This document shows positions 42,905 to 64,000 of a DNA stretch of 64,000 nucleotides, in pieces. Origin of the DNA: Pseudomonadota bacterium (GTDB lineage: Bacteria > Myxococcota_A > UBA9160 > PR03); assembly GCA_003576805.1 (NCBI GenBank), contig QEVM01000001.1:2646-66645 (forward strand), written 5' to 3'. The number at the start of each line of letters is the position of its first letter. Positions within the stretch are counted from its first letter, which is position 1. The notes beneath the pieces were generated by a model. That model searched no databases, had not been told where the DNA came from, and saw only the letters and a program-made list of their open reading frames with translations. Made by a program: the position numbers and the translations under genes.

Positions 42905-44860
42905 TCAGCGCTCGCGACCGCGGTCTTGCTCGTGCTCGACATCGTCGAGCGCCCAGGTGAGCGTTCGACGCTCGCGGCTTTCCTGCTCCGCGGTGACCTC
43001 GGCCCGCGCGCGGACGGCATGGCCCACCTCGAGGTCTCGGCGGTCCGTCGGGACTGCGGTCAACTCCTGCCCGGTGTCGAGTACGACGTAGCTCTTGCCG
43101 TCGTCGTCGACGGCGTAGCCGACGACGGGGCCTTGGTGGGCGCGGCCGGGCTCGGCCCTGGTCGTACTGCTCTCCTTGCCATGGATGCGCTCCAAATCAC
43201 GCAGCGTCGTCGGAACGCGCTCGCCGCGAATCATTCTTCCCTCGACCATCCGCTCCGCTCCTTTCTCGACTTCATAGGTTCTCTCGGCTCCTTCGTCGCG
43301 ACTTCGACGCAGGAGGCCCTCCCGCTCGAGCACAGGTCCGCGCGCGCGGACTGCGGCGCGCCATTGGCGGAAGAAGCCGCGGCGGTCGGGGGCCGGAGAG
43401 GGAAGGGCGCCGGTCTCTCGCACGGATCGAAGGGCATCGCGGTCGAGCAAGGTGGAGGCGGTCTCCGCGCGCTTCAAGTCGCGTAGCGGGCCATGCTCGA
43501 GGATCTCGGTCCGCATCGCGCGGTCTCCGGTGCGGGTGGCCGCGCCGCCGCGCAGTGTCACAACGGAGCCGGGCCGGAGGCGGCCCTCTCCGCGGGCCGT
43601 GACGATCTCCGTTGTCTGCGGGATCAGATGGCGACGGCCATCCGTGCCCTCGACGATCAGCAGCGGCTCGTCGCGGGACTCGTCGATCCCGCCTCCGGTC
43701 ACGCGGCCCGTGACCTCCACGCCCGCCAACATACGCGTCAGCACCACCGGCGCGTCCCGATCGGACACCAAGGTGCGCGAGCGCGCGAGGCTCTTCTGCA
43801 CGTCACCAGCGATCTGGATCTGCCGGAGCGCCGGGACAAGTTCGGGGGAGAGGTGCCAGCGTTTGGGTCCAAGCCGTTCTGCGAGGCCGATGCTTTCCAG
43901 ATACTGAAGCCTACGCAGGTCCTGCTGCCGACGCTCTTGGGCGACGGGTCGCGACGGCACCCCATCGTCGAAGGACACGGTCCCACCCGCGTCCGCTCGT
44001 CCGAGGAGCGAGCGGTCGATCTCCGTGAGCCGCGGCGCCGAGATCGCATTCTCGCGCGCTCGCCGGTACTCGTGCTCCTGCCGATGCCCGAGCGTCCGCG
44101 TCAGGAGCTCCTGACTGCGCGCCCGAATGCCCGTCCGGATGTAGTCGCGCGCGAGGAGGAGGGCCTTGCCTTCCTCGTCTACGCCGCGCACCACGATGTG
44201 TACGTGAGGGTGCGCCGTGTCGTGGTGATCGATCGCCACCCACTCGAGCCGGGTGCCAAGATCGTACTCGATCTGCGCCATCAGCTGCCGCGCGTGGCCG
44301 CTGAGATCGGCCCGCGCCCCTGCCTCGGGTGAGACGACGATCTTCCAGAGGCGCGCATCGCCGGCCTTCTGCCAAGCGTCGAGCCGCTCGGGAAGGTCGA
44401 GGTCATCGCGCTCCGCATCGAATCCCAGCCCCCGCGCGTCCTCGCGCTGTGCACCCGCGCGGCTCAGGTAACGGCCCTGTGCCCGCCAGGCTCCGCGTCC
44501 CTTATTCCGCGCGAACGACATCTTCACGAGGCTGCGCTGTTGGAGCGGTGACGACGTGGTCGTGAACGCGATGGGGCCTCGAGCGCGCCGGTGTCCGCGC
44601 TGATGCGCGCCGAGCTCCGCGGACAGGCGCTGCAGTGCCCGAGCTGACCGCCCTCCGCTCTCGCGCGCGATCCGCGAAGGTCGCAGACGCATCGAGGGAG
44701 CGTCCCGATCGGAGGTCGAGCGACTACCACTTCGTTGCGCGAGCGCCGGCGACGAGAGTTCGGGGCCACGCTTGTGCTCTCTGTGGTGGCCATGATCAAC
44801 CGCCTGGCCGGCATCCGATCGCGCCGAGCCAGGCTTCGCGGTCGGCGACCGCGGGCTCAC
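42905..44860 (-). CDS. conjugative relaxase (VirD2/MobP-like relaxase domain with large C-terminal extension)
   Basis: RLWKIVVSPE...WVAIDHHDTAHPHVHIVVRGVD histidine-triad motif. N-terminal MRLRPSRIARE block typical of ICE relaxases of this type. The ATG at 44860 overlaps the traF stop by 4 nt (alternative start 44692). Confidence 0.8.
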   Translation of the reverse strand: MSPRSPTAKPGSARSDAGQAVDHGHHREHKRGPELSSPALAQRSGSRSTSDRDAPSMRLRPSRIARESGGRSARALQRLSAELGAHQRGHRRARGPIAFTTTSSPLQQRSLVKMSFARNKGRGAWRAQGRYLSRAGAQREDARGLGFDAERDDLDLPERLDAWQKAGDARLWKIVVSPEAGARADLSGHARQLMAQIEYDLGTRLEWVAIDHHDTAHPHVHIVVRGVDEEGKALLLARDYIRTGIRARSQELLTRTLGHRQEHEYRRARENAISAPRLTEIDRSLLGRADAGGTVSFDDGVPSRPVAQERRQQDLRRLQYLESIGLAERLGPKRWHLSPELVPALRQIQIAGDVQKSLARSRTLVSDRDAPVVLTRMLAGVEVTGRVTGGGIDESRDEPLLIVEGTDGRRHLIPQTTEIVTARGEGRLRPGSVVTLRGGAATRTGDRAMRTEILEHGPLRDLKRAETASTLLDRDALRSVRETGALPSPAPDRRGFFRQWRAAVRARGPVLEREGLLRRSRDEGAERTYEVEKGAERMVEGRMIRGERVPTTLRDLERIHGKESSTTRAEPGRAHQGPVVGYAVDDDGKSYVVLDTGQELTAVPTDRRDLEVGHAVRARAEVTAEQESRERRTLTWALDDVEHEQDRGRER

Positions 44861-45877: not shown

Positions 45878-47200
45878 CTACTTGTAGAGCCCCTCGCGCG
45901 TCAGCCCGAGCGTGCGCGCGGTGGCGGCGCGGCGGTTGCCGTGGGCGTCGAGTGCGCGGCGGATCAGCCAGGCCTCGACGCGCGCGACCTGCGCGCGCAG
46001 CGTCTGCGGACCCTCGTGCGCGGTCGACTCCTGCACGGGGCGCAGGGCGCCCTGCAGGCGCTCCGAGAGATGGCGCTGCGCGATCGACTCGCCAGACTCC
46101 GCGAGCGCGAGCGCGTGCTGCATCTCGTTCTCGAGCTCGCGCACGTTGCCGGGCCAGTGGTAGGCGAGCAGCAGGTCGGCGGCGGCGCGCGAGAGGTGGC
46201 AGCCGGGCTTGGCTTCGCGCTCGCCGTGCAGGCGCAGGAAGTGCTCGGCGAGCGGCACGACGTCGTCGGCGCGCGCGCGCAGCGGCGGCACGTTGATGCG
46301 GAACACCGCGAGCCGGTAGTAGAGGTCCTCGCGGAAGCGGCCGCGCGCGACCTCCTCGCCGAGCGTGCGGTTGGTGGCGGCGACGACGCGCACGTCGACC
46401 TTGCGCGCCTTCGCGCCGCCGACCGGGCGCACCTCGCGCTCCTGGAGCGCGCGCAGCAGCTTCGCCTGGAGCGACGGCGAGGTCTCCCCGATCTCGTCGA
46501 GGAAGAGCGTGCCGCCGTCGGCCGCCTCGAAGAGGCCGGGCTGGCTGCGGTCGGCGCCGGTGAAGGCGCCCTTCACGTGGCCGAACAGCTCGCTCTCGAG
46601 CAGCGTCTCGGGGAACGCCGCGCAGTTGACCGCGACGAACGCGCCCCGCCGGCGCGGCGAGCCGTCGTGGATGGCGCGCGCGAGCACCTCCTTGCCCGTG
46701 CCGGTCTCGCCGGTGAGGAGCACGGTCGCGTGCGAGGCGGTGGCGCGCTCGACGAGCGCGAGCACGTCGCGCATCGGGGCGCTGCGCGCGAGCAGGCGCC
46801 GGCCCGCGACGCCGTCCGCCGGCGTGCGGATCGGCGCGGGCGGCACCACGGCGGCGAGGAGATCGCGCAGCGACGCGCCGTCGGCCTCGCCGCGCGCACA
46901 CACGGCGGTGGCGCCGGCGCTGCGCAGCACGACGCTGCTGGTCGCGCTGGTCGCGGGCAGGCGGACCAGGATCGGCGGGCAGGCGCCGCGGCCGGCCTGG
47001 CGCAGGCGCGCCACCGCTTCGCGCGCGGGGCGGTCCGCGTCGGCGTCGAGCACGATCGCGTCGAACGCCGAAAGCGGCAGCGCGGCGGCGTCCTCGGCGT
47101 CGCGCGCCCACGCGACGTCGAGCAGCGGCGACTCCGCGACGCCCTCGCTGCGCAGCGTCTCGGCCCGGCCCACGAACAGGATCGATCGGATGCGGTCCAC
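45878..47200 (-). CDS. sigma-54-dependent transcriptional activator (EBP) with atypical receiver-like N-domain
   Basis: GETGTGKE, GAFTGA, LFLDEIG, RFREDLYYRL, WPGNVRELEN, C-terminal HTH NRRAATARTLGLTREGLYK. GTG 47200 preceded by AGGGAG. The N-domain starts ILFVG, without the usual acidic pair. Confidence 0.9.
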   Translation of the reverse strand: MDRIRSILFVGRAETLRSEGVAESPLLDVAWARDAEDAAALPLSAFDAIVLDADADRPAREAVARLRQAGRGACPPILVRLPATSATSSVVLRSAGATAVCARGEADGASLRDLLAAVVPPAPIRTPADGVAGRRLLARSAPMRDVLALVERATASHATVLLTGETGTGKEVLARAIHDGSPRRRGAFVAVNCAAFPETLLESELFGHVKGAFTGADRSQPGLFEAADGGTLFLDEIGETSPSLQAKLLRALQEREVRPVGGAKARKVDVRVVAATNRTLGEEVARGRFREDLYYRLAVFRINVPPLRARADDVVPLAEHFLRLHGEREAKPGCHLSRAAADLLLAYHWPGNVRELENEMQHALALAESGESIAQRHLSERLQGALRPVQESTAHEGPQTLRAQVARVEAWLIRRALDAHGNRRAATARTLGLTREGLYK

Positions 47201-47388
47201 GTGGCTCCCTCGCTCGTCCCCCGCGCGAGGCAGGAAGAGCAAGGGACGTGCCCGCCCGCGTGGACGCCGGGCCACGCTGATCGATGCTGAGCGGGCGACG
47301 GCGGTTCGCTGACGACGAGCGCGAGCGAAGGCGTATCGCGCATACGTCGAGCGAAGCGCGAGGAAGTCAGCGGGCCGCCGGCGCGCGC

Positions 47389-48012
47389 TCAGTGCACCAC
47401 GAGCACCGGCTTGCGCGTCTCGCCGATCACGCGGTGCGAGAGCGAGCCGAGCACCGCGCCGCTGAACGCGCCGAGCCCGCGGCTGCCCATCACGACGAGG
47501 TCGGCCTTCTCGGCGGCGTCGGCGATCGCGCGCGTCGGCGGCTTCATCTCGACGCGTCCCACGTGCGGAACGCCGGCCGCCTCGCAGATGCGCCCGCAGC
47601 GCTCGAGCTGCGCGATCGCGTCCTTGCGCAGCGTCTCCTCCATCTTGCCGATGTCGAGCCCGAGCCGCGTCGCGCCGGCGAACGCGCTGTCGAGCGGCAG
47701 CAGCCGGATCACGGTGGGATCGATCGCGGAGATCAGCGTGAGCCGTCCGCCGGTCACCTTCGCGATCGAGGTGGCGAGCTCGACCGCGCGCAGCGACGGG
47801 CCGGAGCCGTCCACCGCGACCACGATCTCGCGCGGCGCGGCGGGCAGGGCGGACGGTGCGGCCGGCTTCACGCCCTCCGCGCGCTCGTGCTCGCTCTCGG
47901 TCGAGATCGCGCAGCGCAGCGAGCAGTAACGCTCGGAGCCCTGCGCGGTCGGGAACTCGACGGCGGTCTCCTCGGGGACGTGCGCTCCGCACACGGGGCA
48001 CTTCATCATCAT
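47389..48012 (-). CDS. universal stress protein with N-terminal zinc-ribbon
   Basis: MMMKCPVCG...YCSLRC, then a UspA domain (IVVAVDGS...VVMGSRGLGAFSGAVLGSLSHRV). AAGGAG RBS. ATGA overlap with the ppsA stop. Confidence 0.8.
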   Translation of the reverse strand: MMMKCPVCGAHVPEETAVEFPTAQGSERYCSLRCAISTESEHERAEGVKPAAPSALPAAPREIVVAVDGSGPSLRAVELATSIAKVTGGRLTLISAIDPTVIRLLPLDSAFAGATRLGLDIGKMEETLRKDAIAQLERCGRICEAAGVPHVGRVEMKPPTRAIADAAEKADLVVMGSRGLGAFSGAVLGSLSHRVIGETRKPVLVVH

Positions 48013-50420
48013 GCCGTTCTCCTTTCGCTGTCCGGGGTCTCGCCCGCGAGCGTGCGCTCGAGCTCGGCGACGCGCAGGCGCGTCGCGAGCGCGACGTCGC
48101 TCGAGAGCGAGAGGCTGTCGATGCCGGCGCGCACCAGCAGCTCGGCGATCGCGGGGTGGTCGCTCGGCGCCTGGCCGCAGATGCCGATCTTGCGCCCGGC
48201 GCGGCGCGCGCCCTCGACCGCCATGCGCAGCGCCTTCACGACGGCGGGGTTCCGCTCGTCGAAGGCGCCGGCGAGGATGCCGGAGTCGCGGTCGACGCCG
48301 AGCACGAGCTGCGTCAGATCGTTCGAGCCGATCGAGAAGCCGTCGAAGTGCGCGGCGAACTCGTCGATCAGGAGCACGTTCGCCGGGATCTCGCACATCA
48401 CGTAGATCTCGAGCCCGTGCTCGCCGCGCACGAGGCCGTGCTTCGCCATCTCGGCCTGCACGCGCACGGCTTCGTCCACGCTGCGGCAGAACGGGATCAT
48501 CACGATCACGTTCGCGAGCCCCATCTCCTCGCGCACCTGCTTGATCGCGCGGCACTCGAGCGCGAAGCCCTCGCGGTAGGCGTCGTGCGCGTAACGCGAA
48601 GCGCCGCGGAACCCGATCATCGGGTTCTCCTCCTCCGGCTCGAAGAAGGCGCCGCCGAGCAGGCCCGCGTACTCGTTGGTCTTGAAGTCGGAGAGGCGCA
48701 CGATCACGGGGCGCGGATGGAAGGCCGCCGCGAGCCGCGCGACGCCCTCCGCCAGCTTCTCGACGAAGAAGGTCGCGCCGTCCGGGTAGCCGCGCGTCTT
48801 CTCGGCGATCGCGCGGCGCGTCGCGTCGTCGGTGCGCTCGGGGTGCACGAGCGCCATCGGGTGGACGCCGATCGCGTTCATGATGATGAACTCCTCGCGC
48901 GCGAGGCCGACGCCGTCCACGGGCAGGAACGAGAGCGCGAACGCCTGCTCGGGATCGCCGACGTTGACCAGGATCTGGGTGCGCGTCGGCGGGATCTCGC
49001 GCGCGTCCACCTCGCTGCGCTCGAAGGCGAGCACGCCGTCGAAGACGCGGCCCGTCTCGCCGTCCGCGCACGACACCGTGACCGGCTCGCCCGGCTGCAG
49101 CACCGCGGTCGCGTTGCCGGCGCCCACCACGCACGGGATGCCGAGCTCGCGGCTCACGATCGCCGCGTGGCAGGTGCGCCCGCCGCGGTCGGTCACGATC
49201 GCCGCGGCGGTGCGCATGATCGGCTCCCAGTCGGGATCGGTCATGCCCGTCACGAGCACCGAGCCCGGCTCGAACGACGTCATCTGCGATGCGTGGTCGA
49301 GCCGTGACACCGGGCCCGCGCCGATCTGGGTGCCGACCGCGCGGCCCGTGACGCGCACCGCGCCCTGCTCCTTCAGCCGCCAGGTGACGAGCTTCGCGAC
49401 GTCGCGGTGCGAGTGCGCGGTCTCGGGGCGCGCCTGCACGATGAAGAGCTTTCCGCTCGGCCCGTCCTTGGCCCACTCGATGTCCATCGGCCGCGGCTCG
49501 CCGGCGCGCTCGCCGTAGTGCTTCTCGATCGCGATCGCCTGGCGCGCCAGCTCGGCGGTCTCCTCGCGCGAGAGCACGAACTGGCGGCGCAGCGCCTCGG
49601 GCACGGTCACGTTGCGCACGCCGCGCGAGCCGCCCTCGTCGTACACCATCGCGACTTCCTTCGAGCCGAGGCGCCGCGCGATCTCGCGGCCGGTCGGCTT
49701 GAAGACGACGTACTCGTCCGGGTTGGTGACGCCCTGCACGATGTTCTCGCCGAGCCCGTAGATCGCGGTGATCAACACCACGCGGTCGAAGCCGCTCTCG
49801 GTGTCGAGCGTGAAGAGCACGCCGGCGCCCGCCTGGTCGGAGCGCACCATCTTCTGGACGCCGATCGAGAGGTACACCTTCTCGTGCTCGAAGCCGCGCT
49901 CGGCGCGGTACGAGATGGCGCGGTCGGTGAAGAGCGACGCGAAGCAGCGCCGGCACGCCTCCACCAGGTTCGCCGCGCCGTGCACGTTGAGATAGGTCTC
50001 CTGCTGGCCGGCGAAGCTCGCGGTCGGCAGGTCCTCGGCCGTCGCGCTCGAGCGCACGGCGACGTCCGTCGCCTCGGAGCCGTACTGGCGCGAGAGCTCC
50101 GCGTAGGCCGCTTCGAGCTCTCGCAGCACGGCGGGCGGGAAAGGCGCCTCGCGCAGCGCGCTGCGGGCGAGCGCGCCGCAGGCGCGCAGCGAGTCGACGT
50201 CGTTCGGGTCGAGCGGCGCGAGCGCGCCGCGCAGCCGCTCGCGCACGCCCGGGCCGTCGAGCAGCGCGCGGTACGCGTCGGCGGTGAGCGCGAAGCCGTC
50301 GGGCACCGAGACGCCGAGCGGCGCGAGCGAGCCGATCATCTCGCCGAACGAGGCGTTCTTGCCGCCGACGAGCGGCAGGTCGTCGAGCGAGAGGGTTCGG
50401 AACGGCCGGACGTACCGCAT
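48009..50420 (-). CDS. ppsA: phosphoenolpyruvate synthase (pyruvate, water dikinase)
   Basis: VGGKNASFGEM ATP-grasp start, phosphohistidine swivel GGRTCHAAIVSRELGIP, PEP-utilising TIM barrel GSNDLTQ. Start at Met41 (50420; 50444 possible). Confidence 0.9.
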   Translation of the reverse strand: MRYVRPFRTLSLDDLPLVGGKNASFGEMIGSLAPLGVSVPDGFALTADAYRALLDGPGVRERLRGALAPLDPNDVDSLRACGALARSALREAPFPPAVLRELEAAYAELSRQYGSEATDVAVRSSATAEDLPTASFAGQQETYLNVHGAANLVEACRRCFASLFTDRAISYRAERGFEHEKVYLSIGVQKMVRSDQAGAGVLFTLDTESGFDRVVLITAIYGLGENIVQGVTNPDEYVVFKPTGREIARRLGSKEVAMVYDEGGSRGVRNVTVPEALRRQFVLSREETAELARQAIAIEKHYGERAGEPRPMDIEWAKDGPSGKLFIVQARPETAHSHRDVAKLVTWRLKEQGAVRVTGRAVGTQIGAGPVSRLDHASQMTSFEPGSVLVTGMTDPDWEPIMRTAAAIVTDRGGRTCHAAIVSRELGIPCVVGAGNATAVLQPGEPVTVSCADGETGRVFDGVLAFERSEVDAREIPPTRTQILVNVGDPEQAFALSFLPVDGVGLAREEFIIMNAIGVHPMALVHPERTDDATRRAIAEKTRGYPDGATFFVEKLAEGVARLAAAFHPRPVIVRLSDFKTNEYAGLLGGAFFEPEEENPMIGFRGASRYAHDAYREGFALECRAIKQVREEMGLANVIVMIPFCRSVDEAVRVQAEMAKHGLVRGEHGLEIYVMCEIPANVLLIDEFAAHFDGFSIGSNDLTQLVLGVDRDSGILAGAFDERNPAVVKALRMAVEGARRAGRKIGICGQAPSDHPAIAELLVRAGIDSLSLSSDVALATRLRVAELERTLAGETPDSERRTA

Positions 50421-50455
50421 GCGACGCGCCTCCACCGCGAACATCGGTGTTGCGG

Positions 50456-50471
50456 TGCAGGGATCGAGCCA
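50456..50471 (-). promoter_or_regulatory. sigma-54 (-24/-12) type promoter candidate for ppsA-usp
   Basis: Minus strand reads TGGCTCG-ATCC-CTGCA, versus consensus TGGCACG-N4-TTGCA with GG/GC spacing correct. It sits 36 nt upstream of ATG 50420, with a GGAGG RBS between. An EBP gene lies just downstream of the operon. Confidence 0.4.
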
Positions 50472-50596
50472 AGCGCGCACGTGCGAAGCGAACGCGCGCG
50501 GCGTCCGCTCGCGGCGCGCGACTGCGGCGATGCGCCACAACTGGGGTCGGGCGCAACAGCGCGCGGTGCTGGCGTATGCTGCGCCGCGGAGGCGCG

Positions 50597-51418
50597 ATGA
50601 CGAGTCCCGATCGACTGCGCGAGGGCTTCGCCGTCGCGATCACGGGCGCGGCGGGCGGCATCGGCTCGGCGCTGGCGCGCGCGTTCGCGCGCCGCGGCGC
50701 GCGCGTCGCGCTGCTCGACCTGCCGGGGCCCGCGCTCGACGCGCTCGCCGCCGAGCTCCGCGCGAGCGGCGCCGACGCGCTCGCGCTTGCGTGCGACGTC
50801 ACCGACGCCGCGCAGACGCGCGCCGCGACGGCCGCCGCCGTCGCGCGCTTCGGCGGGCTCGACGTCGCGATCGCGAACGCCGGCATCACGCACATCGGCC
50901 GCTTCGCGGAGACCGACGCCGCCGTGCTGCGACGCGTGATGGACGTCAACTTCTTCGGCGCGGTGCACCTCGCGCAGGCCGCGGCGGAGCCGCTCGCGGC
51001 GCGGCGCGGCGTCCTCGTCGTGGTGTCGAGCGTGGCGGGCTTCGCGCCGCTCGCGGGGCGCGCCGGCTACGCGGCCAGCAAGCACGCGCTGCACGGGCTC
51101 TTCGCGTCGGTGCGCGTCGAGTGGCGGCGGCGCGGCGTGCAGGTGCTGATCGCGTGCCCGAGCTTCGTCGCGACCGACATCGGCAAGCGCGCGCTCGGGC
51201 CCGACGGCGGCGCGCCGCGCGACGCGCGCACGACGACCGGGAAGCCCGCGTCGCCGGACGCGGTCGCGGAGGCGATCGCGCGCGCGGCGATCGCGCGCCG
51301 CCGCTTCCTCGTGCTCTCGCCGGTCGGCGTCGCGTCCTGGTGGCTCGCGCGCCTGTGGCCCGCGGGCTACGAGCGCATCATGGAGCGACGGCTGCTGCGC
51401 GGCGAAGCCGCGCCGTAG
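50597..51418 (+). CDS. SDR family oxidoreductase
   Basis: AITGAAGGIG, VSSVAG...YAASKHAL. Confidence 0.85.
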   Translation: MTSPDRLREGFAVAITGAAGGIGSALARAFARRGARVALLDLPGPALDALAAELRASGADALALACDVTDAAQTRAATAAAVARFGGLDVAIANAGITHIGRFAETDAAVLRRVMDVNFFGAVHLAQAAAEPLAARRGVLVVVSSVAGFAPLAGRAGYAASKHALHGLFASVRVEWRRRGVQVLIACPSFVATDIGKRALGPDGGAPRDARTTTGKPASPDAVAEAIARAAIARRRFLVLSPVGVASWWLARLWPAGYERIMERRLLRGEAAP

Positions 51419-53024
51419 CCGCGAGCGCGCCGAGCGCGCACGCCGCGGCGAGCGCGCCGCTCGGCTCGGGCGCGGCGCGCGCGAAGCCGCCGCGCCCGGT
51501 GGGCCAGACGACGCGCGCCTGCGACGAGCCGGGGATCTCGTACGCGACGAGCCCCGTGTGCGCGGTGTTCACGATCACCTCGAGGTTCGCGTCGGCGTCG
51601 AGCTGCGCGAGCGTCGGCGCGGCGAGCGCGCCGTCCCAGCTCGCGGTCGAGCGCGGCAGCGCCGTGCGCGCGCGCTCCTGGCCGAGCGCGCCGGCGATCA
51701 CCAGGTCGCCGCTCGCGCCGCTCGCCTTGTCGGTCCACGTCGCGAACAGCACCTCGGCGGCGCCGTCGCCGTCGAGGTCCGCGACGACGGGCTCGGACGC
51801 GAAGCGCTTGCGGTCCGGGTCGGCGTCGTTGCTGACGTCGAACGGCCACGCGCCGTGCTCGGCGCCGTCGAGCCAGAAGGCGTGGACGCGGCCGTCGTAC
51901 GACGCGTACAGGATCTCCTTCGCGCCGTCGCCGTCGAGGTCGGCGAGCACCGGGTTCGCCTCGGCGGACTCGATCTCCTCGTAGTCGAGCGAGAGCGGCG
52001 CGGCGAACGCGTCGGGCGCGGGCGGCGTCGTCCAGTCGTGCGGCCCGGCGCGCCAGCGCGTGCGGTCGGCGGCGAACACCATCGGCACCTGGAAGAGCTG
52101 CGGGTAGCCGTCCGCGCGGCAGTCGTAGAAGCCGCCGACGATCACGATCTCGTTCGCACCGTCGCCGTCGAGGTCGCCGATCGCGGGCGCCGCGTCGGCG
52201 AAGTTCGGGCGCGGCTCGAGCGGCGGCCCGGCGGCGCAGTTGGCCCAGCCGCGCAGGTCCACGGCCGGGTCCCAGTGCACGCCGACCTGCGCCCAGGTCT
52301 TGCCCGCTCCGTAGATCGCGCTCGCGGCGAGCGGCGCGCCGTCGTCGCCGAACGCGGCGAGGTAGTGCACGTCGCTCGACGCCGCGATCTCGAGCTCGCC
52401 GTCGCCGTCGAGGTCGCCCGCCGCGAGGTTCTGGTTGTACGCGCCCGCGGCCCAGCCGGCGTCGCCGGAGGCGAGGCGCGGCCAGCCGGCGCGCACCGCG
52501 CCCGAGCCGTCCAACACGGTCCACGTGGGCCGCGCGCCCGAGCTGCTGCCGGACGTCGCAGCCGTCAGCAGCTCGTGCGCGCCGTCGCCGTCGAGGTCCG
52601 CGACCGCGAGCGTGCGCATCTCGCCCGTCGCGAACGGGCTCACCGGCCAGCCGGGCCGCAGCGCCCCCGACGCGTCGAGCACGGAGAGCGCGTCGTACTG
52701 CACGACCGCGATCTCGCGCGCGCCGTCGCCGTCGACGTCCGCGACTGCGACGGCGGGCCAGATGCGGCCGGCCGATCCCGCCGGCGGATACGTCCACGCC
52801 AGCGCGCCGGTGTCGCCGCGCACCGCGAGCAAGCGCGCGCCGCCGCCGAGCACGAGCGGCGCGCCGTCCGTCTCGACGAGCGCGGGCGACGCGTACCACG
52901 CGCGGTCGCAGTACGAGCTCGCGCAGCGCTGCCACTCCAGCACGGGCGCGGCGATCTCGGCGCGCGCGGAGGGCGCGGCGCACGAAACGAAGAGCGCGAT
53001 CCCGGCTGCGGCGAAGCTGCGCAT
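51378..53024 (-). CDS. FG-GAP/VCBS repeat protein with PEP-CTERM sorting signal
   Basis: Signal peptide, six D[LV]DGDGxxE[IL] loops spaced about 60-80 aa apart, C-terminal PEPSGALAAACALGALAATARLRR (PEP + TM + Arg cluster). Start at Met38 (53024) or Met31. Confidence 0.8.
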   Translation of the reverse strand: MRSFAAAGIALFVSCAAPSARAEIAAPVLEWQRCASSYCDRAWYASPALVETDGAPLVLGGGARLLAVRGDTGALAWTYPPAGSAGRIWPAVAVADVDGDGAREIAVVQYDALSVLDASGALRPGWPVSPFATGEMRTLAVADLDGDGAHELLTAATSGSSSGARPTWTVLDGSGAVRAGWPRLASGDAGWAAGAYNQNLAAGDLDGDGELEIAASSDVHYLAAFGDDGAPLAASAIYGAGKTWAQVGVHWDPAVDLRGWANCAAGPPLEPRPNFADAAPAIGDLDGDGANEIVIVGGFYDCRADGYPQLFQVPMVFAADRTRWRAGPHDWTTPPAPDAFAAPLSLDYEEIESAEANPVLADLDGDGAKEILYASYDGRVHAFWLDGAEHGAWPFDVSNDADPDRKRFASEPVVADLDGDGAAEVLFATWTDKASGASGDLVIAGALGQERARTALPRSTASWDGALAAPTLAQLDADANLEVIVNTAHTGLVAYEIPGSSQARVVWPTGRGGFARAAPEPSGALAAACALGALAATARLRRAAAVAP

Positions 53025-53135
53025 GCTGCGGTCCTCGGCACGCATCGGCCGCCGCGCCGTTCGGCATGACGGAACGCAGCGCGCGCGCAGCGGCGCGCCT
53101 TGTGGCGCGGCCCGGATCGCGGGTATGTTCCGCAT

Positions 53136-57196: not shown

Positions 57197-58077
57197 GACG
57201 TCGAGCTGCGCGCCGGCTCCACGATGCTCTTCGCGAGATCGTCGAGCCGCGCGACGAGGCCGTCGCGGTCGCCCGCCACCACGAGCAGGATCACCTGATC
57301 GACGCCGGCGTCGCGGTAGCGGCGCACGGCGTCGAAGTCGACCGGCTGCATGTAGGGCGAGATGCTGACCTGGATCTCGGAGCGCGTGCGGCCCGCCTTC
57401 GCGAGGAAGCGGTCGAGGCGCGCGAGGTGCGACGGCACCGCGTCGGGGAGCAGGTTGAAGCCGTACCAGCCCTGGCCGAGGTCCGCGACGCGGCGCAGCG
57501 CGGCGTCACTCTCGCCGCCGAAGTGGATCGGCGGGTGCGGCTTCTGCACCGGCTTCGGGTTCTGGCGCAGCGGCTCGAACGAGTAGAACGTGCCCTGATG
57601 GGACGACACGGGCTGCGTCCAGAGCGCCTGCATCGCGGCGAGGTAGTCGCGCGTGCGCGCCGCGCGCTGCTCGAAGGGAACGTCGCAGGCGCGGAACTCC
57701 TCGGCGAGCCAGCCGACGCCGACGCCGAAGTCGAAGCGCCCTTTCGAGAGCCAGTCGACGGCCGCCACCTCTTTGGCGGTGTAGACGGGGTTGCGCTGCG
57801 GCACGAGACAGATGCCGGTGCCGAGCCGAATGCGCGACGTGCGCGCCGCGAGGAAGGCGAGCGCGGTGAACGGCTCCAGCATCCCGCTCTCGCCGCCCGC
57901 CGGGATCTTGCCGTCGGCCGCGTACGGATACTGCGAGGCGTACTCGTCGAAGAGCACGACGTGCTCCGCGACCCAGAGCGAGTGGAAGCCGCGCTCCTCG
58001 GCGGCGGTGCCGAGCGCGTTCAGGTAATCGGGCGTCGAGAACGGGTTGGCGAGCGCCGCGAAGATGCCGATCTGCAT
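57193..58077 (-). CDS. LLM-class (luciferase-like) F420-dependent oxidoreductase
   Basis: FHSLWVAEHV, RIRLGTGICLVPQRNP, GRFDFGVGVGW, PPIHFGG. 4-nt overlap with dus. Confidence 0.85.
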   Translation of the reverse strand: MQIGIFAALANPFSTPDYLNALGTAAEERGFHSLWVAEHVVLFDEYASQYPYAADGKIPAGGESGMLEPFTALAFLAARTSRIRLGTGICLVPQRNPVYTAKEVAAVDWLSKGRFDFGVGVGWLAEEFRACDVPFEQRAARTRDYLAAMQALWTQPVSSHQGTFYSFEPLRQNPKPVQKPHPPIHFGGESDAALRRVADLGQGWYGFNLLPDAVPSHLARLDRFLAKAGRTRSEIQVSISPYMQPVDFDAVRRYRDAGVDQVILLVVAGDRDGLVARLDDLAKSIVEPARSSTS

Positions 58078-58146
58078 CCGGTCTCCTCCTCGAGACCGTC
58101 GGGTCTAGCACGTTCGCGGCGCGCGCGGCGCCGCGGCGGCGCGCGC

Positions 58147-61100
58147 TCAGCGCTGCGCCGACTTCGCGGGCTTCTTCTTGGCGGGAGCGGGCTTCTTCGC
58201 GGCCTTGGCGGCGCCGCCCGACCAGTACGCGTCGAACGAGCCGCAGTCGAGCGAGCCCAGCGACGGCGGCGCGGGCGTGCCCGCCTTCACGGCGACCGGC
58301 GCGGTGCCCTGGAAGGCGCGGTCGATCTTGCCGTCGAAGTTCGCGTCCTCGTCCTGGCGCACGACGGCGTCGCCCGAGAAGGTCTGGATCACGTCGGGGC
58401 GCCGGTCGCCGTTGGTGTCGGCCTCGAGGCGCACGCGCACGCCGTTCTCGTAGACCTCGCGCTGGTCGGGCTTGCCGTTGCCGTCGGTGTCGAGGATCGC
58501 CTGCGTCACCTGACCGCCCGCGACGAGCGCGCGCGCGTCGAGCCGGCCGTCGCCGTTGGTGTCCAGACACTGCGCCGTGACGCTGCCGTCGGCGGCGAGG
58601 AAGAGCTTCTTGTTGGGCCGCGCGGCGCCGCCCTCGATCAGCTCCTGCGTCGCCGCGACGCCGGCTTCGAAGCGCGTCACCACGTCGGCCTTGCCGTCGC
58701 CGTCGGTGTCGCGCGCCTCGCGCACCGGCTGACCGCCCTCGAACGCGACCCAGCTGTCGACGCGGCCGTCGCCGTCGGCGTCGCGCGCCTCTTCCGCCGA
58801 CGCCGGCTTGCCGTCGACGAACGTCGCGACCGCCTCGGGCTGGCCGTCGCCGTCGCGGTCCTCGCGCTTCTCGACGACCTGGCCGTTGGCGTCGAGCACG
58901 ACCCAGGTGTCGACCCTGCCGTCGCCGTTCGCGTCGAGCTCCTGGAGCTGGCTGCCGTCCTTCTGGGCGCGGCTCGTCGCGTCCATCGTGCCGTCGAAGT
59001 CGGTGTCCTGCTGCGTCTGGAGGAGCTGGTCGCCGCGGAACGTCGCGACGATGTCGGCGCGCCCGTCGGCGTTGCTGTCCTTCTCGGTGCGCACGCGCAC
59101 GCCGTTCTCGAAGAGCGTCGCGAGCTCGCGCTTGCCGTCGCCGTCGCCGTCCTCCTCGATGCGGGCGGGCTTGCCGGCGGCGTCGAAGACGGTGAGCACG
59201 TCGGGCTTGCCGTCGCCGTCGCGGTCCTCGCTCTGGCGCGCCTTGACGCCGTTCTCGTACTCGACGACGACGTCCGCCTTGCCGTCGCCGTTGGTGTCGG
59301 CCTCGGTGCGCTGCGGCCGGCCGGCGGAGTCGAGCTTCGTGGTGGTCGAGCCCTCGAAGCGCCCGTCGCCGTCGCGGTCCGACTCTTCCTTGACGAGCAC
59401 GCCGCCCTGATAGACGCGCGCCACGTCGGCGCGGCCGTCGCCGTTGGTGTCGACCTCCTCGCGCGCCGGCTTGCCGTCGCGGTCGAACACGACCCACGCG
59501 TCCGGCCGGCCGTCGCCGTCGGTGTCGCGCTCCTGCTTCGCCTGCTTGCCGTCCTGGAAGGTGAGCACCGTGTCGAACGCGCCCTTGCCCTGCGTGTCGC
59601 GCTCCTGGCGCACGGGCTGGCCGTTCTCGAAGACGGTCGCGACGTCGAGCTTGCCGTCGCCGTTGGTGTCGCGCTCCTCGCGCAGCGGGACGCCGGCGCG
59701 GTACGTGGTGCGCACGTCGACCTTGCCGTCGTGGTCGGTGTCCTTCTCGTCGGCGGTGACGTTGCCGTCGGCGTCGAGCGTGCCCTTCACGTCGGGCTTG
59801 CCGTCGAAGTCGGTGTCCTCGGAGAAGCGCGCGGGCTTGCCGCCGGCGAACTCGACGAGGCGGTCCGGCTTGCCGTCGGCGTTCTTGTCCTCCTCGACCT
59901 TCACCGGCTGGCCCGACGCGTCGCTGGTGCGCCAGGTGTCGACGCGGCCGTCGCGGTTGGTGTCGGTGAGGAGGCGCGTCTCCTTGCCCGTCGCCGGATC
60001 GAGCGTGACCCAGGTGTCGACCTGGCCGTCGCGGTCCCGATCCTGCTCCTGCTTCTCCATCTTCTCGTTCGGGTCGAAGAAGTTCCACAGGTCGATGCGG
60101 CCGTCGCCGTCCTCGTCGATCTCGACGCGCTGGAGCCGTCCCTCGCCGCGGATCTCGACGCGCGAAGGCTGGCCGGACTTGCCGACACTCGTGCGCTTCT
60201 GGAGCTCGCCGTCGCGGTACTCGCCGGCGGTCTCGAAGCTGCCGTCGCCGTCGGCGTCCACCTGCTCGCGCACGAGCTTCTCGTTCGCGCCGAACTCGTA
60301 GACGGCGTCGATCTTGCCGTCGCCGTTGCGGTCCTCTTCCTGCTTCGCCTTCTTGCCGTTCGCGAAGGTGACGAAGGTGTCGGGCTTGCCGTCGCCGTTG
60401 GTGTCGGCCTTCGAGCGCGCCGGCTCGCCGCCCGCGTACTCCGTGACGAGGTCCGGCTTGCCGTCGCCGTTCTCGTCCTTCTCCTCGCGCACCTTCTGCC
60501 CGCCCGAGAACTCGCGCACGAGGTCGAAGCGGCCGTCGCCGTTGGTGTCGTGGCGCTCGCGCGCGACCTTGCCCTGCGCGTCGAACTCGGCGACGAACTC
60601 CGGCTTGCCGTCGCGGTTGGCGTCGCGCACCTGCTCCTGCTCGACGCCGCCCTTGAACTCGCTGATGGTGTCGGTGCGGCCGTCGCCGTCGCTGTCGGCC
60701 TCGCGCGCGACCGGCTTGCCGCCCTCGTAGCGCGTGACGAGGTCGAACTTGCCGTCGCCGTTCGTGTCCTCCTCGACGCGCACCTTGACGCCGTCCTGGT
60801 ACACGATCGCGGCGTCGATCTTGCCGTCGTCGTCGGTGTCCTGCTCCTCGCGCAGCGGGCGGCCCTCGGCGTCGTACTCGGCGCGCGCGTCGGGCTTGCC
60901 GTCGCCGTCGTGGTCCTCTTCGGCGCGCTGGCGCTTGCCGTTCTGGTAGAACACCCAGCGGTCGATCTTGCCGTCGCCGTTGGTGTCGGCCTCTTCCTTC
61001 GCGGGCTGGCCCGCGGCGTCGAACACGAGCACGGCCTCGGGCTTGCCGTCGCGGTTCTTGTCCGCCTTCTGCACGGCCGGCTGGCCGCCCTGGAACTCGA

Positions 61101-61425
61101 TCGTCTCGTCGGGCTTGCCGTCGCCGTCGGTGTCGCGCTCCTGCTTCACGGTCTGGCCCGCGGCGTCGTACGTCACGACCGTGTCCATGCGGCCGTCGAA
61201 GTCCGCGTCCTTCTCGGCGCGCGCCGGCTTGCCGCCGCGGTAGGTCACGATCTCGTCGAACTTGCAGTCCTTGTTGTTGTCGGCGCGCTTCTCGGCGAGC
61301 TCTTCCTTGTCGTCGTAGAGCAGCTCGACGGGCGCGCACTTCTTGGCCGACTGCGCGTGCGCGGGCGCAGCGGCGGCCAGGCCCAGAGCAGCCAGGGCGA
61401 CGGCGAGGAGCGGAGCTCGGTGCAA
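58147..61425 (-). CDS. secreted protein of ~39 tandem DxDxDG calcium-loop/hairpin repeats with basic K/A/P tail (family not recognised)
   Basis: In-frame TTG at 61425 (GGAAGG 8 nt upstream) gives signal peptide MHRAPLLAVALAALGLAAAAPAHA. Then come repeated units such as DTNGDGKFDLVTRYEGGKPVAREA. Ends AAKAAKKPAPAKKKPAKSAQR. Confidence 0.8.
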   Translation of the reverse strand: MHRAPLLAVALAALGLAAAAPAHAQSAKKCAPVELLYDDKEELAEKRADNNKDCKFDEIVTYRGGKPARAEKDADFDGRMDTVVTYDAAGQTVKQERDTDGDGKPDETIEFQGGQPAVQKADKNRDGKPEAVLVFDAAGQPAKEEADTNGDGKIDRWVFYQNGKRQRAEEDHDGDGKPDARAEYDAEGRPLREEQDTDDDGKIDAAIVYQDGVKVRVEEDTNGDGKFDLVTRYEGGKPVAREADSDGDGRTDTISEFKGGVEQEQVRDANRDGKPEFVAEFDAQGKVARERHDTNGDGRFDLVREFSGGQKVREEKDENGDGKPDLVTEYAGGEPARSKADTNGDGKPDTFVTFANGKKAKQEEDRNGDGKIDAVYEFGANEKLVREQVDADGDGSFETAGEYRDGELQKRTSVGKSGQPSRVEIRGEGRLQRVEIDEDGDGRIDLWNFFDPNEKMEKQEQDRDRDGQVDTWVTLDPATGKETRLLTDTNRDGRVDTWRTSDASGQPVKVEEDKNADGKPDRLVEFAGGKPARFSEDTDFDGKPDVKGTLDADGNVTADEKDTDHDGKVDVRTTYRAGVPLREERDTNGDGKLDVATVFENGQPVRQERDTQGKGAFDTVLTFQDGKQAKQERDTDGDGRPDAWVVFDRDGKPAREEVDTNGDGRADVARVYQGGVLVKEESDRDGDGRFEGSTTTKLDSAGRPQRTEADTNGDGKADVVVEYENGVKARQSEDRDGDGKPDVLTVFDAAGKPARIEEDGDGDGKRELATLFENGVRVRTEKDSNADGRADIVATFRGDQLLQTQQDTDFDGTMDATSRAQKDGSQLQELDANGDGRVDTWVVLDANGQVVEKREDRDGDGQPEAVATFVDGKPASAEEARDADGDGRVDSWVAFEGGQPVREARDTDGDGKADVVTRFEAGVAATQELIEGGAARPNKKLFLAADGSVTAQCLDTNGDGRLDARALVAGGQVTQAILDTDGNGKPDQREVYENGVRVRLEADTNGDRRPDVIQTFSGDAVVRQDEDANFDGKIDRAFQGTAPVAVKAGTPAPPSLGSLDCGSFDAYWSGGAAKAAKKPAPAKKKPAKSAQR
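58303..61281 (-). repeat. intragenic tandem repeat array, unit about 72-75 nt (about 39 units)
   Basis: Recurrent plus-strand cores such as cttgccgtcgccgttggtgtc at a regular spacing of about 72 nt. Protein-level period is 24-25 aa. Confidence 0.75.
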
Positions 61426-61427
61426 CT

Positions 61428-62654
61428 TCAGCCTTCCGGGGTGAGCGAGAAGGTGCCGGTGAGCCGGCGGTTGGCGAGGCAGCGCACGCGGTCCGACATC
61501 GGCGGGAAGGGCGACGCGGCGCGCAGCGCCTCGACGACGCTGTTGCCGACGGCCGAGTTGGAGGCGTTCACGAGCTTCACGCTCGTCGCGGAGCCGGAGA
61601 CGTCGAGCTGCCAGCTGAGCGTCGCGCGCGCGGATTTCTGCATCGAGGGCGGCGCGACCCAGCGCGCCAGCGTGCGCTGGCGGATCTGCTCCTGATAGGC
61701 GCGCACCTCGGGGCGGCTGTCGCAGTCGGGCGTGTCGCCGCCGAGCGTGGTGCCGTCGCCGCCGGGGCCGCGCAGGTTGCCGGTGCCGACGCGCGTGTCG
61801 ACGCTCGCGAGCCGCTCGCCGTCCGGGCTGCCGAGCACGTCGCGGCCGGTGACCGCGCCTTCGCGCACCGACGAGCCGTCGCCGCTGCGCACGACCGTGC
61901 CCGCGCCGACGCTGTTGCCGCCGGTGGCGATCGCCTTGGGCCCGACCGACGCGCCCACCGCGCCGCCCGCGGCGTTGACGGGACCGCGCACCGCGGGCGC
62001 CGCGACCGAGCCGACGTCGATCTGCCGCGGCGCCGACGGCGCCGCCACGTTGGTCACGGCCTGCACGGTCTCGACCGCGACCGACGACGTGCGGATCTCG
62101 CGCGGCGCGGAGACCGCGGATTGCAGCTGCTTCATGTCGAGCGTCGGCGCGGCGACGTTCGGCGACGCCTGCTGGATCACCGACGGGTTCACGACCTGCG
62201 GCTGCACCGCCTGCGCGGACGGCGCGAAGTTCACGCTGCGCCGCTCGGCGAGCGCCTTCGGCGCCGCAGCGGGCTTGGGCGCCGGCGTCGGTGCGGGCCT
62301 CGGCGCGGGCGCCGGCGGCTTCTCCACGACCTTCTCGATCTTCTCGACCTTCGGCGCGGGCGGCGGCGGGGGCGGCGGCGGCGCCTCCTTCACCAGCTCG
62401 ATCGGAATCACCTCTTCCTCTGGCTCGACCGGCACGACCCACGCGATCGCGACGCACAGCAGCAGGACCGCGACGTGCAGCCCGCCCGAGACGAGCGCGG
62501 CCAGCGTGCGGCGGCGGCGGCCCTCCGGCTCGGGCAGCTCGATCCCCGGGAAGCGGCGCGTCGGCGCGCCGCGCGCGGCCGCGCCGAGCCGCAGCGTGCG
62601 CAGCGGCGTGGGGCGCGCCTCGCGGCGCCGGAATCCGGGAGAGGAAGAGCTCAT
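61428..62654 (-). CDS. TonB/TolA-like energy-transducer protein
   Basis: Cytoplasmic N-terminus, single TM LAALVSGGLHVAVLLLCVAIAWVV, Pro-rich spacer EAPPPPPPPPAPKVEKIEKVVEKPPAPAPRPAPTPAPKP, C-terminal TonB_C-like domain (..ATLSWQLDVSGSATSVKLVNASNSAVGNSVVEALRAASPFPP). Start at Met52. Confidence 0.75.
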   Translation of the reverse strand: MSSSSPGFRRREARPTPLRTLRLGAAARGAPTRRFPGIELPEPEGRRRRTLAALVSGGLHVAVLLLCVAIAWVVPVEPEEEVIPIELVKEAPPPPPPPPAPKVEKIEKVVEKPPAPAPRPAPTPAPKPAAAPKALAERRSVNFAPSAQAVQPQVVNPSVIQQASPNVAAPTLDMKQLQSAVSAPREIRTSSVAVETVQAVTNVAAPSAPRQIDVGSVAAPAVRGPVNAAGGAVGASVGPKAIATGGNSVGAGTVVRSGDGSSVREGAVTGRDVLGSPDGERLASVDTRVGTGNLRGPGGDGTTLGGDTPDCDSRPEVRAYQEQIRQRTLARWVAPPSMQKSARATLSWQLDVSGSATSVKLVNASNSAVGNSVVEALRAASPFPPMSDRVRCLANRRLTGTFSLTPEG

Positions 62655-63105
62655 GCAGATCGTTCTCGGCTGCTCCGCAGAGTCGCCGCTGGAGCCGGCG
62701 GCGTCGAGTTGCGCGCGTCCTGCACCGGGACGGATGCGCGCTGCACGCTCACGCGTTCCGTCCGGCGCGAGATCGTTGGATGCGCGAGCTGCGCGAATGC
62801 TTCGCATCCGGCGCCGTCGAAGGACGCTCGCGAGGCGGCGTGCGCAACGCGCTGGAAGCCGCTCCGCAAGTTGCGAACGAGGCGCGCACGCGAGCTCTCG
62901 GAAATTCGAACGCAGGCTCGAACGAAGTCCGCGAAGTGCTCGCCATGTCTCGCGAATCCATCATGCGCGCGAATCGTAGACTGCGCGGCGTCGGCGTGTC
63001 AACGCGCGCGTGATCGTGTTTGAATCGCGCTCTCGCGTTCGGATAAGATGAGCCGCTCGCTGGCCGGGGAAAGACATCCCGCGCGGCGATCGAACACCGC
63101 TGGAG

Positions 63106-63804
63106 GTGCCGAAGTTGGACGTCGCAACGATCGCCCGAATGATCCAGGATGGCTGGCTCACGACGGCGCCGCTCGCGCTCTGCTCGATCCTGGTGCTCGC
63201 GATCATGATCGAACGCTGGCTGCGCTACCGCGGCATCGAGAAGCAGACGCGCGAGCTCACGCGCGGCGTGGTCGAGGCGCTCGGCAAGCGCGACCTCTCC
63301 ACCGCGAACGCGCTGTGCCAGACCTCGAAGACGCCGATCGCGCAGATCTTCCGCGAAGGACTCGCGTGGAAGAACATCGCGCTCGAGGACCTCGAGCGGA
63401 TCCTCGCGACGTCGCGACAGGAGACGGTGTCGGAGCTGCGGCGCGGCGTGTGGGTGATCGGCACGATCGGCTCGCTCGCGCCCTTCATCGGCCTGTTCGG
63501 CACCGTGGTCGGCATCATGAAGGCGTTCCACCAGATCGCGGTCGAGGGCTCGGGCGGCTTCGAGGTGGTGGCGGCCGGCATCTCGGAGGCGCTGATCGCG
63601 ACCGCGGTCGGCCTCGGCGTCGCGATCATCGCGCTCGCCTTCTACAACTACCTGAACGTGAAGATCGGCCTGATCGGCAACGGCTTCGCGCGCGCCTGCG
63701 AGCGCCTGGTCCAGGCGCTGCTCTACGTCGAGTCGTCCGGCCCCGCGCCGGACGTGCGCGGCAACGCACCGGAGGTCGGCCGTGGCCATCCACTCCCTGC
63801 CTAG
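63106..63804 (+). CDS. exbB: MotA/TolQ/ExbB proton-channel protein
   Basis: Three TM segments, LGTIGSLAPFIGLFGTVVGIMKAF, ISEALIATAVGL. TTG at 63115 (8 nt after GGAGG) is an alternative start. Confidence 0.85.
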   Translation: MPKLDVATIARMIQDGWLTTAPLALCSILVLAIMIERWLRYRGIEKQTRELTRGVVEALGKRDLSTANALCQTSKTPIAQIFREGLAWKNIALEDLERILATSRQETVSELRRGVWVIGTIGSLAPFIGLFGTVVGIMKAFHQIAVEGSGGFEVVAAGISEALIATAVGLGVAIIALAFYNYLNVKIGLIGNGFARACERLVQALLYVESSGPAPDVRGNAPEVGRGHPLPA

Positions 63805-64000
63805 CGCCGACGAGTCGACCGGCGACGACATCGTCGCCGAGATCAACATCACGCCGCTGACCGACATCTTCCTCGTCCTGCTGATCATCTTCATGGTCAC
63901 CACGTCGGTGATCTCGAGCCAGGGCAAGGAGGTCGACCTGCCGAGCTCGGCGGTCGCGTCGCAGACACCGGCCGGCGTCACCGTCACGCTCTCCGCCGAC
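63782..64000 (+). CDS. exbD: ExbD/TolR biopolymer transport protein (3'-partial at window end)
   Basis: GTG after GGAGG. EINITPLTDIFLVLLIIFMVTTS is the ExbD/TolR signature. Overlaps the exbB stop. Confidence 0.75.
   Translation, partial: MAIHSLPSADESTGDDIVAEINITPLTDIFLVLLIIFMVTTSVISSQGKEVDLPSSAVASQTPAGVTVTLSAD

Follow-up and report, generated by a model that had tools for sequence, protein, structure and literature searches.

The right end of the 64-kb window analysed here (64,000 nucleotides of contig QEVM01000001.1, from a bacterium that GTDB assigns to the Myxococcota_A) encodes what comparative analysis indicates to be a force-transduction module of the Ton/Tol type that includes a fourth, so far undescribed component. 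Beside an exbB/tolQ-like and an exbD/tolR-like motor gene and a TonB/TolA-like transducer gene stands a gene for a large calcium-loop repeat protein, whose function is predicted computationally. The four genes are very probably functionally coupled, and we favour, at a probability of roughly 0.55, a periplasmic role for the repeat protein, stiffened by calcium, as partner or accessory of the Ton-type transducer. In textbooks, inner-membrane energy reaches the outer membrane of diderm bacteria through the Ton and Tol systems; how force is transferred across the periplasm is still debated, and the parts lists of both systems are regarded as complete. In the literature searched, which took in a 2025 survey of periplasmic force transducers and another of MotAB/ExbBD homologues, neither this family of repeats nor a link between it and Ton genes was described. 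A sequence-only reading of the window had earlier proposed that the repeat protein occupies the "TolB position" behind the transducer gene and may be the envelope partner or cargo of an energy-transducing module that could be non-canonical.

The genes named in that reading are real, and its coordinates hold. The transducer gene (61428 to 62654, minus strand) encodes 408 amino acids (aa) from ATG 62654, the most likely start, to TGA 61430-61428, and its product matches NCBI DCC71_00295, of a "Proteobacteria bacterium" metagenome-assembled genome (MAG), at every residue; a longer open reading frame (ORF) extending up to 62807 received no support from orthologues. The repeat-protein gene follows on the same strand (58147 to 61425), its ORF translating into 1092 aa from TTG 61425-61423 to a stop at 58147. 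At the junction (61423 to 61430, minus strand) the transducer stop and the repeat-protein start are separated by 2 nt, and a GGAAGG ribosome site lies 8-13 nt before the TTG, inside the 3' end of the transducer gene. The motor genes diverge from this pair on the plus strand across a gap measured at about 450-460 nt, where some 450 nt had been claimed. The first start codon of the exbB ORF (63106 to 63804) is GTG 63106, and translation probably starts at TTG 63115, preceded by the Shine-Dalgarno sequence GGAGG at 63102-63106. The exbD gene (63782 to 64000), which opens with GTG 63782, shares 23 nt with the end of exbB and runs out of the window. Exact-sequence look-ups with ExbB and the repeat protein matched nothing because the gene starts differ. 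Three further ORFs of more than 1200 aa (57427-61695, plus strand; 57506-61339 and 58147-62457, minus strand) overlap the repeat gene in other frames or on the opposite strand, a consequence of its GC-rich repeat sequence full of aspartate and glycine codons; all were rejected as genes, the 1436-aa ORF at 58147-62457 being an artefact of DNA with a G+C content of 71%.

The transducer and repeat genes are very likely co-transcribed, as had been proposed, and probably translationally coupled. Besides the 2-nt gap, this view draws on a scan of the minus strand that found no terminator-like site between or inside the two genes; a terminator between them was one of the findings that the earlier reading had named as evidence against itself. 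A consensus scan of 57.9-63.3 kb returned a single sigma-70-like site (1 versus 0.0 expected from shuffles), TTGACA-N18-TACGAT at 63002 to 62973 on the minus strand, which is the promoter candidate for the transducer/repeat operon and whose TTGACA and TCTACG blocks are kept across an alignment of 8 orthologous intergenic regions. Back-to-back with it, an exbB promoter candidate, TTGAAT-N17-ATAAGA (63020 to 63049, plus strand), was read from the sequence; the block is kept among closer orthologues and scores under the scan threshold, and so counts as weak evidence. A leader of about 310 nt (62655-62972, minus strand) separates the minus-strand promoter candidate from the transducer start codon and contains a block partly conserved in orthologues, GGAATT-GTGAAG-GATG…CTTCCGCCG. 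Rfam gave no match in the leader or the junction, and an RNA element at either place was rejected; the leader is also free of Fur boxes.

The order of the four genes is conserved. The repeat-protein alignment, used as query against one genome per species, yielded 62 loci, almost all from uncultured Myxococcota MAGs, and from these loci the repeat-protein orthologues were taken. In every locus with enough upstream sequence (about 50 of 50) the arrangement is that of the window, with exbB and exbD reading away from the transducer gene and the repeat gene directly behind the latter. In most of about 48 orthologous loci the distance from transducer stop to repeat start falls between −17 and +12 nt, and the few larger distances are artefacts of start calling or assembly. 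Four loci selected as carrying transducer homologues of 47-58% identity (L002, L004, L006 and L007) contain the same four genes between differing flanks and nothing else that is conserved. The synteny that the sequence-only reading proposed to test is thus kept while its surroundings change. In two of the four, a GldA/F/G-like set made up of genes for an ATP-binding cassette (ABC) ATPase, an ABC-2 permease and an ABC_transp_aux/DUF4350 protein is oriented convergently to exbD (L002:5442-8481 and L006:5529-8553); the set is not kept in L004 or L007, and its counterpart in the window would lie past base 64000. Other search routes were less productive: peptide patterns from the transducer found no relatives in the genome scan, a word-indexed protein search with the whole repeat protein did not return its full-length orthologues, which were likewise missing from the representative library, and an indexed search with a profile of the least repetitive part of the protein returned only proteins of less than 300 aa.

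Linkage between such repeats and Ton genes extends beyond this lineage. A metagenome scan with a subfamily of about 620 aa gave 80 loci, of which 8 were too short to judge. Ton genes accompany the repeat gene in 62 of the 72 assessable loci, in several arrangements: repeat-exbB-exbD, with or without tonB behind them (46 loci), the Myxococcota type, including one locus cut upstream (10), repeat-tonB-exbB-exbD (5), and exbBD nearby on the other strand (1). Ten loci, mostly the weakest matches, carry no Ton genes. Two more distant loci of the one-genome-per-species scan also depart from the window arrangement: an Acidobacteriota MAG (L067) has the order repeat-tonB-exbB-exbD, and L066 a convergent exbBD pair. 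In a Desulfobacter MAG (L070) the repeat gene is followed by exbB, exbD and tonB and then by genes for a periplasmic binding protein, FecCD and ABC components, with a TonB-dependent receptor upstream. A receptor lies within 5 kb in 20 of 35 loci of this Desulfobacter type, versus none of about 60 of the Myxococcota type. In three TonB-dependent receptors (P0144, P0151 and P0155), moreover, 6-7 of the same repeat units extend the N-terminus on the periplasmic side and are followed directly by a TonB-box-like EAVTVTE and the plug; the window repeats differ from these extensions in being free-standing, about six times longer and encoded beside the transducer. The association is therefore with Ton-type motors in general and not with a Tol-like system, and it has the backing of several independent gene orders and a domain fusion in addition to inherited synteny.

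These observations bear on the possibility that the repeat gene is an unrelated passenger, a neighbour of Ton genes by descent only. In its favour, the evidence for coupling consists mostly of synteny, with one lineage contributing many of the loci. Against it, the linkage persists in three or four gene orders, in at least three phyla and among unrelated flanks, the transducer and repeat genes lie close together or overlap, and there are TonB-dependent receptors with the repeats fused to them. We therefore regard a passenger as highly improbable. The earlier reading had held that it would fall if homologues were never linked to tonB or exbBD; they are linked to them in several orders and phyla.

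The mature repeat protein comprises 1068 aa (116 kDa, pI 4.5, net charge −85), released from a signal peptide with the junction MHRAPLLAVALAALGLAAAAPAHA/QS, and a signal peptide is present in all orthologues. It contains 38 canonical DxDxDGxxD loops (consensus D-[TA]-[ND]-G-D-G-[KR]-x-D) at a spacing of 24-25 residues, so that the label "Ca-loop repeat protein" given to it earlier was accurate. Each loop leads into a short hairpin marked by a conserved aromatic residue and turning at a glycine, and altogether about 41 beta-hairpin units of 24-25 aa are predicted. The AlphaFold2 model, built from a shallow alignment of 17 rows, shows unbroken two-strand hairpins with nine-residue loops between them at a mean predicted local distance difference test (pLDDT) score of 80.7. 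A free, TonB-box-like strand at the N-terminus, for which the earlier reading had suggested looking, is not evident, the first strand belonging to the first hairpin of the model.

Both ends of the array look like caps. The N-terminal one contains C30 and C54, a co-varying cysteine pair that occurs in one subclade, where the first strand appears to be stapled by a disulfide. At the C-terminal end, LDCGSFDAYW in the window protein and LDCGxFxxFW across orthologues, the near-invariant C1061 of the terminal motif pairs with the invariant C953. Beyond this end the window protein carries a Lys/Ala/Pro-rich tail, GGAAKAAKKPAPAKKKPAKSAQR (aa 1070-1092; 58147-58215, minus strand), which is absent from 4 orthologues inspected by residue and from the majority consensus of 38. 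The protein is collinear with 38 orthologues, all 39 measuring 1011-1123 aa, and its units are 34% identical among themselves versus 53% identical to the unit at the same position in orthologues. By these comparisons the repeats are old and position-specific, with number and register fixed, a pattern that speaks for a defined architecture and against a variable adhesin array.

No curated family in Pfam or NCBIfam covers the whole repeat protein above threshold. Pfam FG-GAP_3 matches above its cut-off (64.3 bits) in a single stretch, 659-721; the DxDGDGxxD loop is indeed the calcium motif of the FG-GAP type, but the period of 24-25 aa differs from the roughly 60 aa of FG-GAP/VCBS repeats. Among propellers, Foldseek matched DDB1 to the model at only E about 1e-8, with a TM-score near 0.1. 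A separate, canonical FG-GAP/VCBS protein of 585 aa (FG-GAP_3 82 bits, FG-GAP 48 bits) is encoded at 51378-53135 on the minus strand, about 5 kb beyond the module and outside the conserved four-gene unit. Relatives of about 620 aa carry the JGI label "antitoxin YwqK", the name of a MORN variant, one relative gives a weak MORN_2 match, and a very large number of proteins of about 200-220 aa built of the same repeat are labelled "YwqK antitoxin", "EF hand" or DUF6802. Membership in the Rhs family, suggested by the best structural matches of the model, was rejected: the protein has no RHS_repeat or YD hidden Markov model match, no DPxG[LIV] motif and no toxin domain, and the likeness of fold is local (template-modelling (TM) score about 0.1).

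The best NCBIfam match, Lsa25.6 (NF050087; 140.2 bits over 4 stretches), raises the alternative of an exported, adhesin-like surface or matrix protein, whose passage through or anchoring to the outer membrane the Ton-type module would power. Lsa25.6 is an adhesin family of Leptospira, and large acidic repeat proteins are often located at the surface. A precedent in Myxococcus xanthus is PopC, a protease whose secretion is reported to require a TonB-dependent transporter (PMC6434023). The Lsa25.6 score is nevertheless under the cut-off of 150, and membership in that family was rejected; the module contains no outer-membrane barrel and no signal or gene of a type I, type V or type IX secretion system; the number of repeats is fixed, not variable; and the fusions place the repeats on the periplasmic side of TonB-dependent receptors. 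An export function of this kind is accordingly unlikely.

The acidity of the protein and its loops suggest another role, that of a periplasmic cation buffer or sink that stores or passes on metal imported through TonB and has no mechanical part to play. Lanmodulin, through its EF loops of about 24-residue spacing (E about 2e-3), is the only sequence relative of the repeat protein found in the PDB; we rejected a relationship on that basis, the similarity being one of loops alone, yet together with the net charge and the 38 loops it fits such a buffer. So do the shorter relatives in metal- or siderophore-type loci with receptor, binding protein, FecCD and ABC genes, and the repeat-bearing receptor P0155 (L152:6001-8643), which is encoded beside CbiM/CbiQ/ABC transporter genes of the cobalt/nickel type. 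Near the Myxococcota-type module, however, no receptor or ABC importer was seen in about 60 loci. The DxDxDG loops of beta-hairpin repeats, in FG-GAP and related families, are usually structural calcium sites; a strict number and register of repeats would be superfluous in a buffer; and the promoter region showed no Fur box or other signal of metal regulation, and a Fur-regulated iron locus was rejected, the best Fur-box match being 12/19, at the start codon. A buffering role is doubtful on balance.

The transducer is a genuine member of the TonB/TolA family, as its conserved-histidine helix, spacer, C-terminal fold and linkage to motor genes attest. A cytoplasmic N-terminus leads into a membrane helix (46-73; pLDDT 86-96) that holds SGGLH, whose H60, the histidine of the SHLS-type motor-binding motif, is invariant in 80 homologues; it is followed by a proline-rich spacer predicted to be non-globular (about 83-125; PPPPPPPPAPK...PAPAPRPAPTPAPKPAAAPK in translation), a conserved segment (about 125-305) and a C-terminal domain (310-408). 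Pfam TonB_2 matches at 32.4 bits against a cut-off of 22, and both TIGR tolA_full and tonB_Cterm match the C-terminus under their cut-offs. The C-terminal domain is modelled as alpha-beta-beta-alpha-beta with pLDDT 90-97 and has conserved cysteines C311 and C392; its target-normalised TM-score in Foldseek is 0.73 to Helicobacter pylori TonB and 0.78 to TolA domain III. The segment 125-305 (window 61740-62282, minus strand) is strongly conserved in the 80 homologues, with invariant residues that include AERRSVNFAP and GDGSSVREG, yet AlphaFold2 predicts it to be disordered (pLDDT below 50), a combination typical of regions that fold on a partner. The Desulfobacter locus has a TonB of 236 aa that lacks this extra stretch of 180 aa.

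By Pfam, ExbB and ExbD are unremarkable representatives of their families (MotA_ExbB, 110 bits; ExbD, 47 bits), and the conserved membrane-helix aspartate of ExbD is present in TPLTDIFLVLLIIFMV. Among the NCBIfam models ExbB scores higher with TolQ (123.7 bits) than with ExbB (83.6 bits), each under its equivalog cut-off, and ExbD, truncated here by the window end, higher with TolR (55.3 bits) than with ExbD (37 bits). In L002, L004, L006 and L007 it is exbD that closes the pair, and its orthologues measure 143-144 aa at full length. None of the four module proteins matched a PADLOC model, and an anti-phage defence motor of the Zorya kind was rejected.

With a motor nearer to TolQ/TolR than to ExbB/ExbD, a transducer C-terminus that scores best with TolA among the curated models, and a predicted beta-rich periplasmic protein encoded directly after the transducer, the module resembles Tol-Pal, and it could be imagined as a replacement for TolB-Pal: an alternative system for envelope integrity or outer-membrane tethering in which the repeat protein plays the part of TolB. 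A recent catalogue of force-transducer systems includes diverse non-canonical ones (PMC12204202). The scores for the Tol equivalogs nonetheless all remain under their cut-offs (TolQ 123.7 versus 221, TolA 37.8 versus 59.45, and TolR, its gene truncated by the window, 55.3 versus 127.3), and the C-terminal domain fits TonB and TolA equally well in fold. The repeat protein has no Pfam or NCBIfam match to TolB, TolB_N or PD40 and is modelled as a uniform array of hairpins, not as a six-bladed propeller, and homology to TolB was rejected. The genes pal, cpoB and ybgC do not accompany the module, Pfam families showed tolB, pal and cpoB to be absent from the 10-kb flanks of L002, L004, L006 and L007, and the motor genes diverge from the transducer gene instead of being collinear with it. 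Since repeat relatives also accompany ordinary Ton uptake operons, a TolB-Pal replacement is quite unlikely, and the analogy of the "TolB position" is one of position only, failing on homology, fold and operon content.

Compared with the Ton system, the likenesses are a MotA_ExbB and ExbD motor with the conserved aspartate, a transducer with a single membrane helix bearing an SxxxH-type histidine, a proline-rich spacer and a C-terminal domain of TonB fold, and the occurrence of shorter repeat relatives inside ordinary exbB-exbD-tonB uptake operons. The module differs in the scores of its motor, in the additional 180-aa segment of the transducer, in a fourth gene, for a 116-kDa soluble repeat protein, that lies outside any described Ton system, and in the lack of a nearby receptor gene. 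A tblastn search of the 64-kb window, in which three receptors served as queries, detected no gene for a TonB-dependent receptor (best E 0.12), and none lies within 6 kb of about 60 Myxococcota-type loci, which extends the earlier remark that none is nearby. The proposal of a non-canonical system rather than a siderophore receptor system therefore survives for the Myxococcota version, in which the transducer is enlarged and no receptor was found locally, but not for the family as a whole, whose shorter relatives head exbB-exbD-tonB operons in receptor and ABC loci and whose repeats are fused to receptors.

Taken together, these data would fit a mechanism in which the four genes form one conserved, self-contained Ton-type unit. 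ExbB and ExbD, closer to TolQ and TolR, would constitute a proton-driven motor in the inner membrane, and the transducer would dock in it through the conserved-histidine helix and span the periplasm. Translated from the same transcript right after the transducer and exported by Sec, the repeat protein would fold into a long array of about 41 hairpins, with some 38 calcium-type loops along one edge and capped ends, and would serve the transducer as its dedicated physical partner or accessory; stiffened by calcium, it would be the scaffold or load that motor and transducer together hold or pull on. The 125-305 segment and the end domain of the transducer are candidate contact sites. The analysis establishes the gene structure, the domain identities and a linkage conserved in several gene orders and phyla. 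We infer the periplasmic location from the signal peptide and from receptors that bear the repeats on their periplasmic side, while calcium binding, a direct contact with the transducer and any mechanical role are predictions. Of the two roles offered by the sequence-only reading, envelope partner or cargo, partner is the better reading in light of the conserved linkage, and cargo found no support.

Several points weigh against the repeat protein being a calcium-stiffened partner of the transducer. Calcium binding by the loops is deduced from the motif alone. The predicted TM score (pTM) of the AlphaFold2 model is only 0.38, so that the overall shape of the protein is not fixed by it, and the top Foldseek matches, the YD-repeat shells of Rhs and teneurin proteins, combine E-values of about 1e-21 with TM-scores near 0.1, which makes them local only. 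Direct contact between repeat protein and transducer is an inference. Loci from related genomes are non-independent observations, and independent support is confined to the three or four distinct gene orders. Because the similarity within the family is driven by the repeats, it does not prove that the three locus types descend from a common ancestor. Nor is every member of the family tied to Ton genes: weaker repeat relatives in about 10 of the 72 assessable metagenome loci stand apart from them, and similar repeats occur in thousands of proteins (2284 at E ≤ 1e-10 in an indexed search; 8698 representative clusters at E ≤ 1e-3, with members of up to 4788 aa).

Farther from the module, the window encodes a protein of 651 aa that combines DUF3363 with a nuclease domain of the MobA/VirD2 relaxase type (42905-44860, minus strand), possibly the remnant of a mobile element. 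Beside it lie the genes for a sigma-54 activator (45878-48001) and for a PEP-utilising enzyme with domains of the pyruvate phosphate dikinase type (48009-50540).

Motors of this kind need not serve import. In the Agl-Glt gliding machinery of Myxococcus xanthus, a TolQR-like AglRQS motor works with the TonB-like proteins GltG and GltJ. This machinery provides a precedent from the same phylum for a TolQR-type motor and TonB-like transducers that drive a periplasmic or outer-membrane machine not devoted to import (PMC12204202). The module differs from it in having one exbB and one exbD in place of one TolQ-like and two TolR-like genes, and in lacking further conserved genes, its flanks being unrelated and variable. 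To our knowledge, no Glt component is a calcium-loop hairpin repeat protein.

A repeat family that accompanies exbB, exbD and tonB in no fewer than three gene orders and three phyla, with occasional fusions to receptors beside the TonB box, would be a new player in the force path. We tentatively extend the partner reading to the family and suggest that these repeat proteins could be a widespread, hitherto unrecognised fourth component of Ton motors, a calcium-dependent periplasmic ruler, spring or track gripped by the transducer. The idea is testable, as the Desulfobacter-type relatives belong to the genus of a cultivable group and lie inside ordinary uptake loci. If it is true, the Myxococcota module would be a self-contained, proton-driven periplasmic machine without a TonB-dependent receptor, with envelope spacing, outer-membrane tethering and surface movement among its possible jobs; the Myxococcota version may represent a further Ton/Tol-type motor adapted to a task other than nutrient import.

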